Shown here: positions 1,054-34,539 of the stretch, piece after piece
Layout: the number at the start of each line of letters is the position of its first letter
How positions within the stretch are numbered: the first letter of the stretch is position 1
DNA from: a virus
DNA: 36,282 nt
Direction: 5' to 3' (one strand)
UHGV virus genome: UHGV-1360836
The notes under the pieces: model-generated
What the model was told of the DNA's origin: nothing
What the model saw: the letters and a program-made list of their open reading frames with translations, nothing else
The model's database searches: none
Made by a program: the position numbers and the translations under genes

Positions 1054-1950
1054 ATGTATGAGGTAGCAACACAACAGAGTGGAGAAATGGTAAGTCGAAA
1101 TACACAGACAGAAATGATGATCAGCCGGCAGGCTCAGGAAGTGCAGGGCGCTATGGTGATCGCAAAGCGTTTTCCAAGAGATGAAGTAGAAAGCTTTAAC
1201 CGGATTATGCAGTCTTGTAAAAGGAAATCTCTTGCAGAGAGCGCAATGTATGAATATCCACGTGGGGGAACAAAAGTTTCCGGGCCCTCTATCCGTCTTG
1301 CCGAAGCAATGGCGCAGAACTGGGGAAATATTGATTTTGGAATTACGGAATTGGAGCAGAAAAATGGGGAGTCACAGGTTATGGCCTATGCGTGGGATTT
1401 GGAGACAAATACCCGTCAGGTCAAAATATTTAGTGTTCCGCATGTTCGCGGAACAAAGAAGGGAAATGTCCCGCTGACGGATCCGAGAGATGTTTACGAA
1501 ATGGTTGCAAATCAGGGAGCACGCCGGCTGCGTTCATGTATTTTGGGGATTATTCCCGGTGATGTTGTTGAAGCAGCAGTTAAACAGTGCGAGGACACGC
1601 TTATAAATGGAGAGAAAAAACCGTTGATTGATCTAGTACGAGATATGGCAGCAATTTTTCAAAATGAGTTTGGAGTACCATTGGATGCAATCGAAAAGTA
1701 CATTGGCTGTAAATCAGAAGCGTTCAGTATGCGAGATCTTGTCCGGTTAAAGAAAGTCTATACATCCCTGCGAGATGGCATGGCAAAACGTGAGGATGTC
1801 TTTGAACTATCGACACTTGTAGGCAATGAGACTGAAAGAGAGGTAAAAGATCCGTTTGCAAATCAGCAGAAGGACGGAAAAAGTTCCACAGCAAAACGAG
1901 GGGTGAAGAATGATGAGAATACAAAGAAAGCTGAGGCTGACACAGAGTAA
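1054..1950 (+). CDS. Putative phage recombination protein (single-strand annealing protein-like; family not resolved)
   Basis: 298-aa ORF with RBS AAAAGGAG. It sits immediately upstream of a PD-(D/E)XK nuclease gene, the usual SSAP-exonuclease pairing in phages. The family assignment is an inference from context only. Confidence 0.45.
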   Translation: MYEVATQQSGEMVSRNTQTEMMISRQAQEVQGAMVIAKRFPRDEVESFNRIMQSCKRKSLAESAMYEYPRGGTKVSGPSIRLAEAMAQNWGNIDFGITELEQKNGESQVMAYAWDLETNTRQVKIFSVPHVRGTKKGNVPLTDPRDVYEMVANQGARRLRSCILGIIPGDVVEAAVKQCEDTLINGEKKPLIDLVRDMAAIFQNEFGVPLDAIEKYIGCKSEAFSMRDLVRLKKVYTSLRDGMAKREDVFELSTLVGNETEREVKDPFANQQKDGKSSTAKRGVKNDENTKKAEADTE

Positions 1951-29414: not shown

Positions 29415-29428
29415 CACCGCCCTCTTTT
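29403..29428 (+). terminator. Hairpin plus T-tract overlapping the holin stop (possible attenuator or terminator)
   Basis: Stem GAGGGCG/CGCCCTC with an 8-nt loop that contains the TAA stop, followed by TTTTG. Confidence 0.35.
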
Positions 29429-29450
29429 GTGTGGAAGAAAGGAGAAGAAC

Positions 29451-30464
29451 ATGGCAAATTTAAGAGTAATCGATGTAAGCGAACATCAAGGGTCTATTAA
29501 CTGGAATGCAGTAAAAGGACATATTGATGGGGCAATCTTACGATGCGGATATGGAGATAATATTGCGAGTCAAGATGATAAGCAGTGGAAAAGAAATGCA
29601 GATGAATGTACAAGACTTGGGATTCCGTTCGGAGTATATATCTATTCCTACGCGACAAGTGACGCACAGGCGAGAAGCGAAGCGGAACACGTCCTTAGAT
29701 TGATAAGCGGATATAAACTTTCGTACCCAATTTATTTAGATTTGGAGCAGGCCGGAACGGAAACAGGAGCAATACAAAGAGCAAATATCTTCGGAGACAT
29801 TATCGAAAACGCTGGATACTGGTGCGGAGTTTACGCCAATACAAATTGGTGGACAAACTACCTTGTAGGATTGGAACGGTTTGTAAAATGGGTGGCACAG
29901 TATAATTCGGTCTGTACATATCAGGGCACATATGATATCTGGCAGTATACGTCAGGCGGATCTGTTCCGGGAATTTCCGGAAACGTGGATATGAATCATT
30001 GTTATAGAGATTATCCAGCAGAAATTACAGGAGGGGATACAAAACCGACGCCGCCGGCAGTAGCACCATCTGGATCTACGCTTGATCTTGTTGTTGGAGT
30101 TATGCAGGGAAAATATGGAGACGGAGACGCTAGAAAAAATGCTCTGGGAAATCGGTATAATGAGGTGCAGAATATGATTAACTATATTGCATCTGCCTCC
30201 GTAGATACACTTGTGAAAGAAGTTTATGCGGGAAAATATGGAAATGGAGACTCAAGAAAAGCAGCTCTGGGAAATCGGTACAACGAGGTGCAGAACAAGA
30301 TTGATGTTTCTTCCGGCGGCGCAGTTTATTACACAGTGCAATCTGGGGACACATTATCTGGAATTGCTGCTAAGTATGGTACAACGTATCAGTATCTTGC
30401 AGGCCTGAATGGGATTGTTAATCCGAATTTGATTTATGCGGGACAAAAGATCCGAGTAAAATAA
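29451..30464 (+). CDS. Endolysin: GH25 muramidase, two CW_7 repeats and a C-terminal LysM domain
   Basis: GH25 N-terminus [30 protein letters not shown]. Two 40-aa repeats [23 protein letters not shown]-terminal [19 protein letters not shown]...IYAGQKIRV. Confidence 0.85.
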
Positions 30465-30494: not shown

Positions 30495-30593
30495 TGGAAT
30501 ATTGTATCATCTTCATACATTATATAAAGAAGTAACAGTTGTAGGTTTTTACGTTAAGGATACCTTATAGGGATATAAAATAATTTGTATGTT

Positions 30594-30624
30594 GTTACGA
30601 AAAGGTTGACCTTTTTGTTATAAC
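30594..30624. other. Imperfect 31-bp palindrome; candidate attP core or arm for the serine integrase
   Basis: GTTACGAAAAGG-TTGACC-TTTTTGTTATAAC. It is nested in an outer inverted repeat CAGTTGTAGGTT (30535..30547) / AACCTACAAAACTG (30622..30635). It lies between the convergent endolysin and int genes with no host DNA. Confidence 0.35.
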
Positions 30625-30650
30625 CTACAAAACTGCGAAAACCCTTGATT

Positions 30651-32132
30651 TTACTGGGATTCCGGCGCATAGTAGTAATAAACTTTCAGCTCATCTTTTG
30701 AGCGATCATATATAATCTTTTCTATCACGCTCTTTAGGATTTCATTTTTGGTTACAGGATCCACAGAGTCAGATTCTATGATTTCATATACATTTCTTAC
30801 TTTTTCCAACATAGCGATTTTAGAAGTATCAATAGTAGGTTCTGCTGGTTTTATGTCTGCAAGCTGCTTTTCCAGCATCTCTTTTTCTTCCTGAACCATG
30901 CGCTTATTTTCTTTATATTCGTCAAGTGTATCTACTCCATTACGGTACGCTTCTCTGATGCGGTCAAATTTTTCCGCATTCTTTCTTAACTGCTCCGTAA
31001 TAATGACGTTTAGATCCACAGAAGTTTCCTGCACCGGTTCAACGTGCCTGTAGATGATGTTGCCAGTGTCCAGAACTTCTTTTATAGATGCAAGTACCGC
31101 CGGTTCTAACCTTAACGAGCTTACAGATGTTTTTGCAAGGCATTTTCCTTTTGAGTACCCATAGCATGTAAAATAGCAGTATGATTTTTGGTTATTTACT
31201 GTTTTGGCAATCATGGTTCTTCCGCATACAGGGCACTTCATAAGACCTGATAGCCAATGTTTGTATGTAGAGGATGGTCTGGTGCCGGATGGTTTGTATT
31301 CGCTTTTGTAACGGATCTGCGCTTTGTCAAATAATTCTTTAGATATAATAGCAGGTTGCTGACCATCAGAGACAATCCATTCTGATTCCGGCCGGATTTC
31401 GTTTGTTTCGCTTACGGTACGGTTCCACCGGATCATACCGCAGTAAGTTGGGTTCTGTAAGATGTATTCAATAGATCTGCGTTCAAACGGTTTGTTGTGA
31501 GATGTTTTAAACCCACACAAATTTAGATAGCGTGCTATGTCGAATATTCCGGTATGTTCATTTACATATTTATCAAATATGATTTTAATTATTTCAGCTT
31601 CTTCCGGTACAATAACGGGAGGTTTTCCGCGCTCTTGGATTTTATATCCAAGCGGAGGACGCGCCTGATAGCCGCCGCGTTTTGCCTTTTCTGTCATCCC
31701 TCGTGTCACTTCGCCGGAAAGACGGACAGAATAGTACTCGTCCATCCATTCAATGATGCGCTCGATCAAAGAGCCGAACGGACCGTCTACAAGCGGCTCG
31801 GAAACGCTCAAGACTTCTACGTTGTGCTTCTTCTTTAAAAGAGATTTATAAACAATAGACTCTTCCTGATTTCTTGCAAATCGACTGAATTTCCACACGA
31901 TGATACAATCTACAGGATGTTTGTCTGATTTCGCAAGAGCGATCATCTTTTGAAACTCCGGACGCTTGTCAGCTTTCCGACCGGAAATACCGAGCTCATA
32001 AAAGATTTGCAGGACAATCATATCGTTCTTTTTAGCAAAGTCTTTCAACAGTTTTGCCTGCGAATCAGGAGAGAGCTCTTCTTGGCCGGATGTGGATACC
32101 CTAACATAACCATAACAATATTTAGTTTTCAT
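30651..32132 (-). CDS. int: Large serine recombinase (phage integrase)
   Basis: N-terminal catalytic domain YGYVRVSTSGQ with the conserved serine, followed by a long recombinase/zinc-ribbon C-terminal region. 493 aa. Confidence 0.85.
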   Translation of the reverse strand: MKTKYCYGYVRVSTSGQEELSPDSQAKLLKDFAKKNDMIVLQIFYELGISGRKADKRPEFQKMIALAKSDKHPVDCIIVWKFSRFARNQEESIVYKSLLKKKHNVEVLSVSEPLVDGPFGSLIERIIEWMDEYYSVRLSGEVTRGMTEKAKRGGYQARPPLGYKIQERGKPPVIVPEEAEIIKIIFDKYVNEHTGIFDIARYLNLCGFKTSHNKPFERRSIEYILQNPTYCGMIRWNRTVSETNEIRPESEWIVSDGQQPAIISKELFDKAQIRYKSEYKPSGTRPSSTYKHWLSGLMKCPVCGRTMIAKTVNNQKSYCYFTCYGYSKGKCLAKTSVSSLRLEPAVLASIKEVLDTGNIIYRHVEPVQETSVDLNVIITEQLRKNAEKFDRIREAYRNGVDTLDEYKENKRMVQEEKEMLEKQLADIKPAEPTIDTSKIAMLEKVRNVYEIIESDSVDPVTKNEILKSVIEKIIYDRSKDELKVYYYYAPESQ

Positions 32133-32317
32133 GACATCACCTCGGTTGATTCATTCTATTCCTGACAGAGCAGGAAAATGAGTATAAAAATAACAGCTAT
32201 CAAGAAACAAATGTTCTGATTGCGATAGCTGACCGAAGATGATACAATATTCTTTGAATTGGGGTATCATTCTTCGGAATGTTACTTGAACCGTTCCTGT
32301 TGGCGCAGGGGCGGTTC

Positions 32318-32345
32318 TTGACTTTTATGGTACATTTGCTATAAT
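32318..32345 (+). promoter_or_regulatory. Strong sigma-A-type promoter with no downstream ORF (candidate sRNA / antitoxin promoter)
   Basis: TTGACT-16 nt-TGcTATAAT with an extended -10. It faces the 3' end of the convergent 27-aa peptide gene. Confidence 0.55.
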
Positions 32346-32446
32346 GTACTTAACAAGACAACTGGAATAGATAGATGAAGCCTATCCGTTCCGGCGCAAC
32401 TTAAAAACTATAAGAAATAGTTGTCAGCTTTGTCAGGGCAGGACGG

Positions 32447-32530
32447 CTATTTTTTATGCGTATAATTCAGAATGGCTACAACCAAAAGCGCAATGCTTAT
32501 GATCAAACTGAGTTCTTCATATGTACTCAT
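32447..32530 (-). CDS. Hol-Tox-like small hydrophobic peptide (27 aa), type I toxin candidate
   Basis: MSTYEELSLIISIALLVVAILNYTHKK. Strong RBS GGAGGGGGTGG upstream on the minus strand. Confidence 0.55.
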   Translation of the reverse strand: MSTYEELSLIISIALLVVAILNYTHKK

Positions 32531-32640
32531 AATTACCACCCCCTCCGCAGGATTCTCGGAATGGGTGGGAGCTCGTCCTCCGGCTACCCGGGTAAATACA
32601 GTATTTAGTTTTTCCCCTGCCCACAGCGGGCAGGGAGGTT

Positions 32641-33681
32641 TTACATAAAGAATAGTAGCGCTAAAATGACGAATACTACTACGGCAATCATCGTGATCAT
32701 GCATCCGGCATTTCCCGTTTGGGTTTCTTCTATTGATCCTTGTGTGTTTGGTGTATATTGTGTTTTAATAGTGTCCCCAAAGTTTTGTTTGAAAATTTCT
32801 GCATATCGTTCCCTGTCGAGAGAAGGCTTATTATAAATATCATTTATGAGTTGGATAAATAATGCTTTAGGGCACACATATGGTGACATATATGAATATG
32901 TTTTATAGATTTCATTAACCATCTGCTCGTTGTAATAATCTTTAAGATTACAGATATCTTTTATCAATCCGGGGGCGAATCCGTTAAAATGGTAATAATC
33001 AGCTATGTCGTCCGAAGGAGCCAGTTTCGATATCAGAGCTTGGTTCGGGGTCCAATTTACATCAAAAAATAGAACGAGTAACAGATTTTTTAGTGAAGTA
33101 GCCATATCACCGGTGTGTGCATAAATTTGCGCTATCGAATAATAAATATTTCGGAATCCATCTGTATTGGTAGAACTTAATTTTTTGTTTAGTATATGCA
33201 ATGCGATTTTGTAAAAATCGTTTTCTCCGATATTAGCTTTTTCTTTTGTGTATTCATCGAGAGAAATTCCCCATGCAGTATTCCTGTGAAATTCTATATA
33301 ATCCTCATGTTTTGACAGAAAATCGACCCCTTTTTCGGAAAGGGAATAGCACTGTTCTTTGTTAGTACAGTTTTTTAATAACTCAGGAGAAACATCCCGA
33401 ATAAGTCTTTCGATAATATCCTGTTTTTTCCCTGTTTTAACAATACCAAATGAGTCGCAAAGCTCTTTAAGTTCTGAGATTTTATATCCTTTTAATGTTT
33501 CAGCGGTAGAACTGGGAATAAGAAACCCGTCAGTAATTAGTTGTTCATGGTATGCTCTAGGATTAGTAATTCCACACTCATTAATAAAGTATCTTTGATA
33601 TCCGTTGTTTTGCTTTAAAGATTTTGCATTGCCGTATGCTTTCAAAAATAAGGCACGGCTATAATCATCTTGACATCCCAT
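32641..33681 (-). CDS. SAP-domain protein with C-terminal transmembrane anchor (candidate superinfection-exclusion or abortive-infection accessory gene)
   Basis: SAP motif KISELKELCDSFGIVKTGKKQDIIERLI. C-terminal TM anchor GCMITMIAVVVFVILALLFFM. RBS AGAGAGGAAAG upstream. Located between int and the repressor. Confidence 0.6.
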   Translation of the reverse strand: MGCQDDYSRALFLKAYGNAKSLKQNNGYQRYFINECGITNPRAYHEQLITDGFLIPSSTAETLKGYKISELKELCDSFGIVKTGKKQDIIERLIRDVSPELLKNCTNKEQCYSLSEKGVDFLSKHEDYIEFHRNTAWGISLDEYTKEKANIGENDFYKIALHILNKKLSSTNTDGFRNIYYSIAQIYAHTGDMATSLKNLLLVLFFDVNWTPNQALISKLAPSDDIADYYHFNGFAPGLIKDICNLKDYYNEQMVNEIYKTYSYMSPYVCPKALFIQLINDIYNKPSLDRERYAEIFKQNFGDTIKTQYTPNTQGSIEETQTGNAGCMITMIAVVVFVILALLFFM

Positions 33682-33758
33682 TTCTTTATCTTTCCTCTCT
33701 TTCTTTTGTCCCTTGTTCCTTTAACACCGCTTTATATAATCGCCGTAGCGGTTATACC

Positions 33759-33971
33759 TTATTTATGCGCAGACATTTCGATTTTCTGCACATCTATTTT
33801 CTCAAAATCACGCTCTTTTATATGCCTAATTGCATGGTTAATTGCCTTTAACCGTTTGCTTTCGCATAAATTTGCGTTTATAAAAATAGTAAATGAATTA
33901 TCTTCGTTTTCAGTTATTACTTCATTAACGGTCATTCCGTCCATGAAAAAAATTTGATAATCAAAACTCAT
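33759..33971 (-). CDS. Hypothetical small protein (70 aa), co-transcribed downstream of the repressor
   Basis: Overlaps the repressor stop. ATG 33971 has AAGGA upstream; the start is uncertain. Confidence 0.4.
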   Translation of the reverse strand: MSFDYQIFFMDGMTVNEVITENEDNSFTIFINANLCESKRLKAINHAIRHIKERDFEKIDVQKIEMSAHK

Positions 33972-34338
33972 TATTATCACGTTCCTTTTTCTTTAATGCC
34001 ATAAGCATGTCATATGTTGTTTTCAAATCTTCCGGAGTAGCATCTTTTGCAGCATCGAATAAGACACGCAAATCTTTGTTTTCAAATAGTTTTTGTGCCA
34101 TCTCAGCGGTTTCTTCGTTTAAATAGTACTTCTCACCGCCTTCCTTTTCTTCGCCAGTACGAATATACTCTACTGATACTCCAAACAAGTCAGCAATTTT
34201 TTGTAGTTTTGCATCTTTGGGGTTGCTTCTTCCATTCTTCCAGTCGGAGAAAGTTGACTTGGTAATCCCAGTTTCCCTTGCAACGTCAGCGTCTTTCATG
34301 CCTTTGGCATCTCTTAACTTGCAATAAATTTCATACAT
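33961..34338 (-). CDS. cI-like repressor (XRE-family HTH plus C-terminal domain)
   Basis: HTH ARETGITKSTFSDWKNGRSNPK...IADLFGVSVEY. RBS GAGGTG upstream. Divergent from the cro-like gene. The extended ORF upstream of Met33 lacks an RBS. Confidence 0.7.
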   Translation of the reverse strand: MYEIYCKLRDAKGMKDADVARETGITKSTFSDWKNGRSNPKDAKLQKIADLFGVSVEYIRTGEEKEGGEKYYLNEETAEMAQKLFENKDLRVLFDAAKDATPEDLKTTYDMLMALKKKERDNNEF

Positions 34339-34539
34339 AATACACCTCACAAAAAAAATTCTGAAATCAGTACAAAAGCTATTGACAAGTTCTGATATCC
34401 GCACTATAATAAAGCTACAAAGTTCGGAAATCAAAACAGAATTGTAACTTAATTCTTTGTCAATGTATCTGGTAAATATATTGTATCTGATTTCCGAACT
34501 AAAATCAATAGGAAAGTTCGGAAATGAGGTGATTATTTA
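34339..34539. promoter_or_regulatory. Genetic switch region: consensus rightward promoter and repeated operator motif AGTTCGGAAAT
   Basis: TTGACA (34382..34387), 17 nt, TATAAT (34405..34410). Operator copies at 34421..34432, 34490..34500 (inverted) and 34515..34525, plus related TTCTGAAAT/TTCTGATAT half-sites. Confidence 0.7.

Follow-up and report, generated by a model that had tools for sequence, protein, structure and literature searches.

We analyzed the surroundings of a small peptide gene in the virus genome UHGV-1360836 of the UHGV set, a stretch of 36,282 nucleotides (nt) to which we refer as a whole as the window. The gene encodes 27 amino acids (aa) and sits between the gene for a SAP-domain protein and that for a serine integrase (int), on the same strand as int and directly upstream of it, in what is either a temperate phage genome or a prophage. 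A promoter on the opposite strand points at the peptide gene from beyond its stop codon, and the predicted transcripts of the two strands converge on one hairpin that overlaps this codon (Table 1). The features described below are those of a candidate toxin-antitoxin cassette in a phage whose host group is gut Lachnospiraceae.

The peptide gene and its relatives

A preliminary description of this DNA, made from the letters alone, had compared the peptide with the small holin-like (Hol-Tox) peptides, and database searches agree: residues 1-24 match the Pfam family Hol_Tox (PF16935) with 28.3 bits against a cut-off of 23.3 (E = 1.6e-6), and a variant peptide from one relative (locus L011) scores 26.6 bits. 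TxpA and BsrG of B. subtilis, in sequences that we supplied ourselves, score 31.3 and 34.5 bits on the same profile, and members of the extended TxpA family had earlier been annotated as 'holin-like toxins' (Fozo et al. 2010, PMC2887945), which together identify Hol-Tox as the TxpA/BsrG family of type I toxins. In layout the short peptide fits the family: it starts with the motif M-[ST]-[TV]-Y-E-x-L, contains a single hydrophobic helix and has a basic C-terminal end. By its family, the peptide is a membrane toxin of the TxpA/BsrG group, with a toxicity predicted from sequence; EF3263, a TxpA-like peptide of Enterococcus faecalis, is toxic when overproduced in E. coli (Fozo et al. 2010, PMC2887945). 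It also matches phrog_9488 (E = 2.8e-5), whose function is given as unknown in PHROGs. A search of NCBIfam found no family, no Pfam match led to the Fst family, and tblastn against GenBank phages found nothing, a result of little weight for so short and hydrophobic a query.

Relatives were collected by degenerate DNA-pattern scans for the N-terminal motif, with a pattern that fixed residues 1-12. Scans of IMG/VR yielded 19 and then 48 loci, all complete copies among which are open reading frames (ORFs) of 23-35 aa with a strong Shine-Dalgarno (SD) sequence; of the incomplete copies, one lies at a contig end and one is frameshifted. A scan of a genome collection gave 96 matches, nearly all in Lachnospiraceae and related Clostridia (Mediterraneibacter, Blautia, Faecalimonas, Schaedlerella and others), and the phage and genome scans combined comprised 111 distinct modules. 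Codon differences from the consensus were synonymous in 535 cases and nonsynonymous in 230, where 22% synonymous would be expected at random, and the length of 27 aa was retained in 109 of 113 copies. This synonymous excess and the kept length indicate that the ORF is a real coding gene under purifying selection. Residues 13-27, which the search pattern left free, were hydrophobic throughout and KK-terminal in 82 of the 84 distinct ORFs.

The strong ribosome-binding site noticed earlier upstream of the peptide gene is present as GGAGGGGG at 32546..32539, 8 nt before the ATG. The run of G in this region (32539..32546) varies among near-identical cassettes, with five in the window and in locus L010, seven in the L005 group and eight in the L003 group, which could reflect homopolymer slippage that tunes translation, or assembly error.

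Cassette limits, predicted antisense RNA and toxin mRNA

The near-consensus convergent promoter proposed on the plus strand reaches 11 of 12 on a sigma-70-like score and has the TG extension. Matches of at least 11/12 number three in the whole 36-kb window, and because about 1.0 per window is expected in first-order Markov sequences, such a site is unremarkable by itself; its position and conservation carry the weight. In about 95 of the 111 distinct loci a sigma-70-like promoter of 10-12/12 on the opposite strand ends 94-111 nt past the stop codon, at a distance from the toxin ORF that is fixed regardless of the flanking genes. More distant Hol-Tox subfamilies, with other peptides and other flanks, have an opposite-strand promoter at 87-111 nt.

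Comparison by blastn with all fetched loci showed that unrelated contexts have exactly 32318..32600 in common. When the loci are aligned in toxin orientation, similarity starts at a -10-like box about 62 nt 5' of the ATG and breaks off precisely where the opposite-strand promoter has its -35 hexamer, and outside these limits the loci diverge sharply into at least four upstream and at least three downstream contexts. As the shared limits coincide with the two promoters, the mobile unit extends from promoter to promoter, a length of about 290 bp. The two cassette ends (32318..32370 and 32575..32605) repeat each other imperfectly in inverted orientation: the toxin -10 box with the first 28 nt of its mRNA is 74% identical to the antitoxin -10 box with the first 28 nt of its RNA, compared with 48% after shuffling, and the two arms co-vary between loci, with the same base before AGCC in the one as in the other at 58 of 76 loci. 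The GC-rich hairpin CCCTGCCC-ACAGC-GGGCAGGG reported between the peptide gene and the SAP gene exists, although at 32615..32635 and not at 32597..32625; lying outside the cassette, it probably acts as an insulator or as a terminator for the gene upstream. In several other contexts a hairpin of different sequence occupies this position, and three loci (L033, L034 and L024) have none there.

The absence of an ORF downstream of the plus-strand promoter, as described earlier, does not hold to the letter, since mechanical calls place plus-strand ORFs at 32456..32608 and 32472..32648, but the predicted RNA stops at about 32456, before both. We aligned 85 distinct sequences from the predicted RNA start to the stop codon (alignment A2) and folded the alignment with RNAalifold. 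In the consensus, a stem-loop stands at the 5' end, and a long hairpin on the 3' side precedes UAUUUYUUAU; 97.4% of the cells of this structure are standard-paired, and 12 of its 22 pairs show compensatory changes on both sides. None of 500 shuffles matched the observed pairing and covariation values, and in slid controls, in which the partner was shifted by 1-3 columns, pairing fell to 37-54%. Read on the plus strand, the helices contain 145 G-U pairs and 49 mismatches, compared with 28 G-U pairs and 166 mismatches on the toxin strand, and this G-U/A-C asymmetry assigns them to a plus-strand RNA. In stem-loop 1, all five pairs of the inner helix show compensatory changes, and the U-G pair of the outer stem would become a C.A mismatch on the toxin strand. 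The RNA of the window itself (32352..32457) folds with -33.6 kcal/mol (z = -5.3).

A covariance model built from A2, with its 85 relatives, found 32351..32460 (+) with 86 bits as its sole match in the window. It gave one match per toxin locus, and none either in R. gnavus phage loci without the toxin or in five loci that keep the ORF with a different downstream sequence. No relevant Rfam family was found in 31000..34000 at E <= 10, where three weak matches to eukaryotic families are attributable to chance. Taken together, the promoter, the terminator and the covarying structure point to a gene whose predicted product is an antisense RNA to the toxin mRNA, as expected of a type I system. In locus L017 (about 1088..1365), the toxin ORF is frameshifted to 15 aa and the antitoxin RNA gene is intact (108 bits), a pattern typical of toxin decay.

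The hairpin over the stop codon looks like a bidirectional intrinsic terminator, with a U-tract at 32450..32455 for the plus-strand RNA and another at 32407..32403 for the toxin mRNA; the two lysine codons and the stop codon form an A-tract on one strand and a U-tract on the other. In A2 this terminator is helix 3, with 12 pairs that are 96.8% paired and six of which show compensatory changes, and its design recurs in other subfamilies. An AT-rich hairpin followed by T5 on the minus strand had been suggested to end the toxin mRNA; an apparent terminator does lie there, and the suggested hairpin (about 32403..32422) is the 3' arm and U-tract of this larger one. Sharing a terminator over the stop codon, the two predicted RNAs would therefore be complementary at their 3' ends over about 54 nt (32403..32456), in agreement with the overlap that had been foreseen between the plus-strand transcript and the 3' untranslated region or coding sequence of the peptide mRNA.

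At the other end of the predicted toxin mRNA, which would be about 190 nt long (191 nt as folded), relatives have TATAAT or AATAAT at the position aligned with the -10 box of the window. In the leader, an anti-SD sequence pairs with the SD region in a helix that encloses a small hairpin and is present in the minimum free energy fold of the 191-nt mRNA. Over 79 distinct leaders the first pair of this helix is U-A in 39 and C-G in 22, and variants of whole arms (UUCCC/GGGAA, CAUCC/GGAUG and CCUCC/GGAGG) retain it. These folds suggest that sequestration of the SD sequence keeps translation of the toxin low, as it does in type I systems; genes of type I toxins typically combine a weak sense promoter with a strong antisense one and a masked SD sequence.

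A leader motif, GGAGGACGAGCU (32580..32569), is complementary to UAGCCGUCCU (32449..32440) at the stop codon. Some relatives have compensatory variants of this pairing, and its energy gain over shuffles is weak, at about one standard deviation. It is conceivable, though we think it rather doubtful, that the leader folds back on this stop-codon and terminator segment, which is also the segment that the antitoxin would bind, in a hok-like 5'-3' relay within the TxpA/BsrG family, with the 5' domain of the antitoxin being a co-evolving paralogue of the toxin leader in a quasi-palindromic cassette. If so, the leader would be dislodged once the antitoxin had bound at the 3' end, SD accessibility would be reset, and a 3'-overlapping antitoxin could govern translation. 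We also considered, and did not uphold, a contact in trans of the toxin leader with the 5' domain of the antitoxin: RNAduplex gave -40.6 kcal/mol compared with -29.5 kcal/mol for shuffled sequences, but non-cognate pairs reached -39.1 kcal/mol, and since the two RNAs are paralogous and self-complementary, the high duplex energy is no evidence of a specific contact.

Table 1 Features of the proposed toxin-antitoxin cassette and its neighbours in the window
Feature	Position	Strand	Remarks
Whole toxin-antitoxin cassette	32318..32605	.	Bounded by the antisense -35 and the toxin -10; ~290 bp
Antitoxin RNA promoter, TTGACT-16-TGcTATAAT	32318..32345	+	11/12 plus TG extension
Predicted antisense antitoxin RNA	32352..32456	+	~105 nt; start placed 7 nt past the -10, end placed at U-tract 32450..32455
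Stem-loop 1 of antisense RNA	32362..32394	+	Outer stem CUGGAA/UUCCGG, inner stem GAUAG/CUAUC
Shared, apparently bidirectional terminator hairpin	32410..32457	.	Overlaps toxin stop codon
Toxin ORF	32447..32530	-	27 aa; product MSTYEELSLIISIALLVVAILNYTHKK
Predicted toxin 5' untranslated region	32531..32593	-	~63 nt; start placed from the -10 box
Shine-Dalgarno region GGAGGGGGUGG	32536..32546	-	3' part (32541..32536) forms one arm of the sequestering helix, on the SD side
Anti-SD CCACCC	32563..32568	-	In toxin 5' untranslated region; pairs with GGGUGG 32541..32536
Toxin -10 box AATACT	32600..32605	-	Weak; no recognisable -35
GC-rich hairpin	32615..32635	.	Outside cassette
Endolysin	29427..30464	+	
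Large serine recombinase (serine integrase)	30651..32132	-	
SAP-domain protein	32641..33681	-	346 aa
Small PHROG-20886 protein	33759..33980	-	
XRE-type repressor	33961..34434	-	Mechanical ORF call, TTG start

Interpretation and alternative explanations

We consider it likely that the locus represents a type I toxin-antitoxin cassette with a toxin of the TxpA/BsrG (Hol-Tox) family, carried as an accessory module in the lysogeny region. The convergent type I layout of txpA/RatA and bsrG/SR4, to which the preliminary description had likened the locus, is borne out by the Hol_Tox peptide, the recurrence of the promoter in most loci, the covarying plus-strand RNA and the 3' overlap. In the mechanism that we propose, the weak promoter (-10 AATACT, 32605..32600) would give rise to the ~190-nt toxin mRNA, and pairing of CCACCC (32568..32563) with the SD region in its 63-nt leader would keep translation low. 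The promoter at 32318..32345 would drive synthesis of a structured antisense RNA of about 105 nt that ends at the toxin mRNA's own terminator hairpin and pairs with the 3' end of that mRNA over the ~54 nt of overlap (32403..32456), probably from loop contacts. If RatA/txpA and SR4/bsrG are a guide, RNase III would cleave this duplex and decay of the toxin mRNA would follow; the accessibility of the SD sequence may also change on antitoxin binding. Were the prophage lost or synthesis of the antitoxin stopped, production of the toxin would follow, with damage to the membrane, so that retention of the prophage would be favoured. Prophage retention, as proposed for prophage modules of B. subtilis and C. 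difficile (PMC6563280), is by this analogy the likely role, and the cassette may also act in phage exclusion.

With txpA/RatA of the B. subtilis skin element, the cassette has in common a toxin in PF16935 (as judged from the TxpA sequence that we supplied), a convergent antisense RNA that overlaps the 3' end and residence in a prophage-like element. TxpA has 59 aa, RatA is about 220 nt long, and the txpA/RatA overlap is about 75 nt, whereas the cassette encodes a 27-aa peptide and a predicted RNA of about 105 nt, with an overlap of about 54 nt that is confined to the shared terminator. The bsrG/SR4 pair of the B. subtilis SPbeta prophage is likewise prophage-borne, with a toxin in PF16935 (its sequence likewise supplied by us) and a toxin mRNA whose SD sequence is partly sequestered; SR4 is about 180 nt long and overlaps bsrG by about 120 nt, so that both the RNA and the overlap are shorter in the cassette. 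In par (Fst / RNA I - RNA II) of pAD1, transcription converges into a shared bidirectional terminator and there are repeats at the 5' ends of both RNAs, features that are also found here, but the 5' repeats of par are complementary between the RNAs and mediate repression, whereas those of the cassette have the same sense (74% identical). Because they form an inverted repeat in the DNA, the 5' ends of the two cassette RNAs are not directly pairable as those of par/Fst are. A long-range pairing of the 5' and 3' parts of the toxin mRNA (GGAGGACGAGCU with UAGCCGUCCU), the support for which is no more than suggestive, would resemble the fold-back inhibition of hok/sok; the toxin family of hok is unrelated, and sok targets the 5' region and not the 3' end.

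For RatA, RNase III-dependent decay is described in a review of Clostridia (PMC6563280), and this is the model adopted for the cassette. SR4, as reported (PMC3834814), binds the 3' region of bsrG mRNA through terminator-loop contacts and tightens SD sequestration. The extended TxpA family includes other short peptides such as BH0344 of Bacillus halodurans, with 27 aa as here, and EF3263, over whose 3' untranslated region an antisense RNA is detected that, at about 110 nt (Fozo et al. 2010, PMC2887945), is close in size to the 105 nt predicted for the cassette; EF3263 differs in genus and sequence, and the present system is known from sequence alone. Type I modules such as CD0977.1-RCd11 also reside in prophages of gut Clostridia, where those of C. 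difficile have been proposed to stabilise the elements that carry them (PMC6563280). Their toxins, of 34-59 aa, have no sequence similarity to the B. subtilis families (PMC6563280), whereas the toxin of the cassette is a TxpA/BsrG homologue.

Several points weigh against a type I cassette. Transcription is itself a prediction, and the ends of the RNAs were placed from consensus motifs. The overlap, perfect but only ~54 nt long, falls within a hairpin that is stable in both RNAs, so that formation of the duplex would have to be initiated by loop-loop contacts, as shown for SR4. The toxin promoter of the window is weak, with 4/6 matches in the -10 and no -35, and the toxin might therefore be expressed only by read-through from the SAP-domain gene. 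The pairing probability of the SD sequence is 0.73 compared with 0.61 in a shuffled-leader control, a difference that is significant across loci but small, and for this reason the covariation is the better evidence of SD masking. Five distinct loci in three contexts (L056/L146, L088/L140 and L107) have an intact toxin ORF without the antisense promoter and RNA gene; accordingly, either the peptide is tolerated without a cis antitoxin in some genomes or these copies are silent. Finally, some TxpA-like or candidate type I peptides are non-toxic in some hosts, for instance TxpA when the host is E. coli and YhzE-2 in B. subtilis, its native host (PMC2887945).

The last two points would also fit a peptide that is a small, non-lethal membrane protein of the lysogen, acting for example in superinfection exclusion or in the modulation of host membrane proteins, the level of which is tuned by the antisense RNA without an addiction module; YhzE-2 is among the candidate type I peptides without toxicity (Fozo et al. 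2010, PMC2887945), and the gap between repressor and integrase, where the window has the SAP-domain protein, holds a 'superinfection exclusion protein' in R. gnavus phages. We regard this explanation as unlikely, given that TxpA, BsrG and EF3263, of the same Pfam family, are toxic when overproduced, that a strong antisense promoter combined with a weak sense promoter and a sequestered SD sequence is the signature of a product to be kept off, and that the frameshifted ORF beside an intact RNA gene in L017 is typical of toxin decay. The term 'holin-like' in the name of the Pfam family, together with the single hydrophobic helix and charged C-terminus, might instead suggest a lysis protein, either holin or antiholin. 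That the peptide serves lysis is scarcely credible, because its gene is on the lysogeny (minus) strand about 2 kb past the plus-strand endolysin gene and thus outside the lysis cassette, the peptide is widespread outside this setting, and the family name itself stems from the TxpA family of type I toxins.

The position of the cassette directly upstream of int, on the toxin strand, and the proximity of its plus-strand promoter to a conserved promoter/terminator element upstream of the integrase gene (described below) raise another explanation, in which this promoter serves the lysogeny and integration module, for example by blocking, through transcriptional interference, read-through into int from the operon of the SAP-domain and repressor genes, or by producing a small RNA that acts in trans. 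The promoter and RNA, however, travel with the toxin ORF into contexts without an adjacent integrase (the L003 group and L017), both are missing from R. gnavus phage loci that have the integrase-upstream element but no toxin, and the RNA and the toxin gene have a common terminator, all of which makes such a role very improbable.

As a type I cassette, the locus is a widely distributed, previously undescribed member of the TxpA/BsrG family and not a new kind of system, and it leaves the understanding of type I systems unchanged. It gives phrog_9488, of 'unknown function' in PHROGs, an evidence-based annotation, and it adds a conserved, structured antitoxin RNA family that has no Rfam match and is represented by 85 distinct sequences and a covariance model. 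This RNA family is common in prophages and genomes of abundant Lachnospiraceae of the human and animal gut (Mediterraneibacter, Blautia and Faecalimonas). Such cassettes can stabilise prophages, may aid phage exclusion and can hamper prophage curing or cloning in gut anaerobes that are hard to manipulate, and a self-contained cassette of 290 bp might be used as a tool for counter-selection or stabilisation, as with the type I modules of C. difficile.

Genome setting and the integrase-upstream element

Structural and lysis genes occupy the plus strand of the window as far as the endolysin, beyond which a minus-strand lysogeny module begins. The region from 30598 to 32638, which comprises the integrase and the peptide gene, matches, at 95% identity, the contig NZ_DS264349.1 of [Ruminococcus] torques ATCC 27756. 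The SAP-domain protein carries its SAP domain near the N-terminus (residues 63-95) and has a hydrophobic C-terminal tail; it has only a weak PHROG match, which PHROGs lists under unknown function. Close relatives of the integrase and toxin-antitoxin region (L010, L031 and L051) are without it. A rightward 12/12 promoter, TTGACA-17-TATAAT at 34382..34410 (+), is probably the early lytic promoter; it lies inside the 5' end of the mechanically called repressor ORF, which suggests that the true start of the repressor is further downstream.

Directly upstream of the integrase gene is a block of about 150 nt (window 32175..32320) that is also present at L001 3501..3670, at L002 3501..3651 and in about 30 other fetched loci. 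It is 74-81% identical in R. gnavus phages and many Lachnospiraceae prophages, which have either a tyrosine or a serine integrase and whose integrase genes are themselves unmatched. The block contains an invariant GTAYAAAAATAACAG, which reads TGtTATTTT on the int strand and may be an extended -10 or the U-tract after a hairpin, a GAAC-N4-GTTC palindrome, and a plus-strand extended -10 promoter (TTGCGA-17-TGATACAAT) within the nearly invariant 20-mer CCGAAGATGATACAATATTC. Further features are a UUCG-loop hairpin whose pairs covary and, at 32288..32317, a plus-strand terminator, the loop of which, TTGGCGCA, is found in either orientation. From its sequence, the block looks like a divergent promoter/operator with a small RNA of about 65 nt, or an attenuator of int; no Rfam family was found for it in a scan of 31000..34000. 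The hairpin was also considered as attP, a reading that we ruled out because the element is intact in contigs of bacterial genomes.

An 18-mer, GAAGATGATACAATATTC, has two exact copies, at 30497..30514 (-) and 32235..32252 (+), where none is expected by chance, and these form an inverted repeat that flanks the integrase gene. One of the copies lies between the stop codon of int and a hairpin, CCCCGGAG..CTCCGGGG, which is followed by a T-run.

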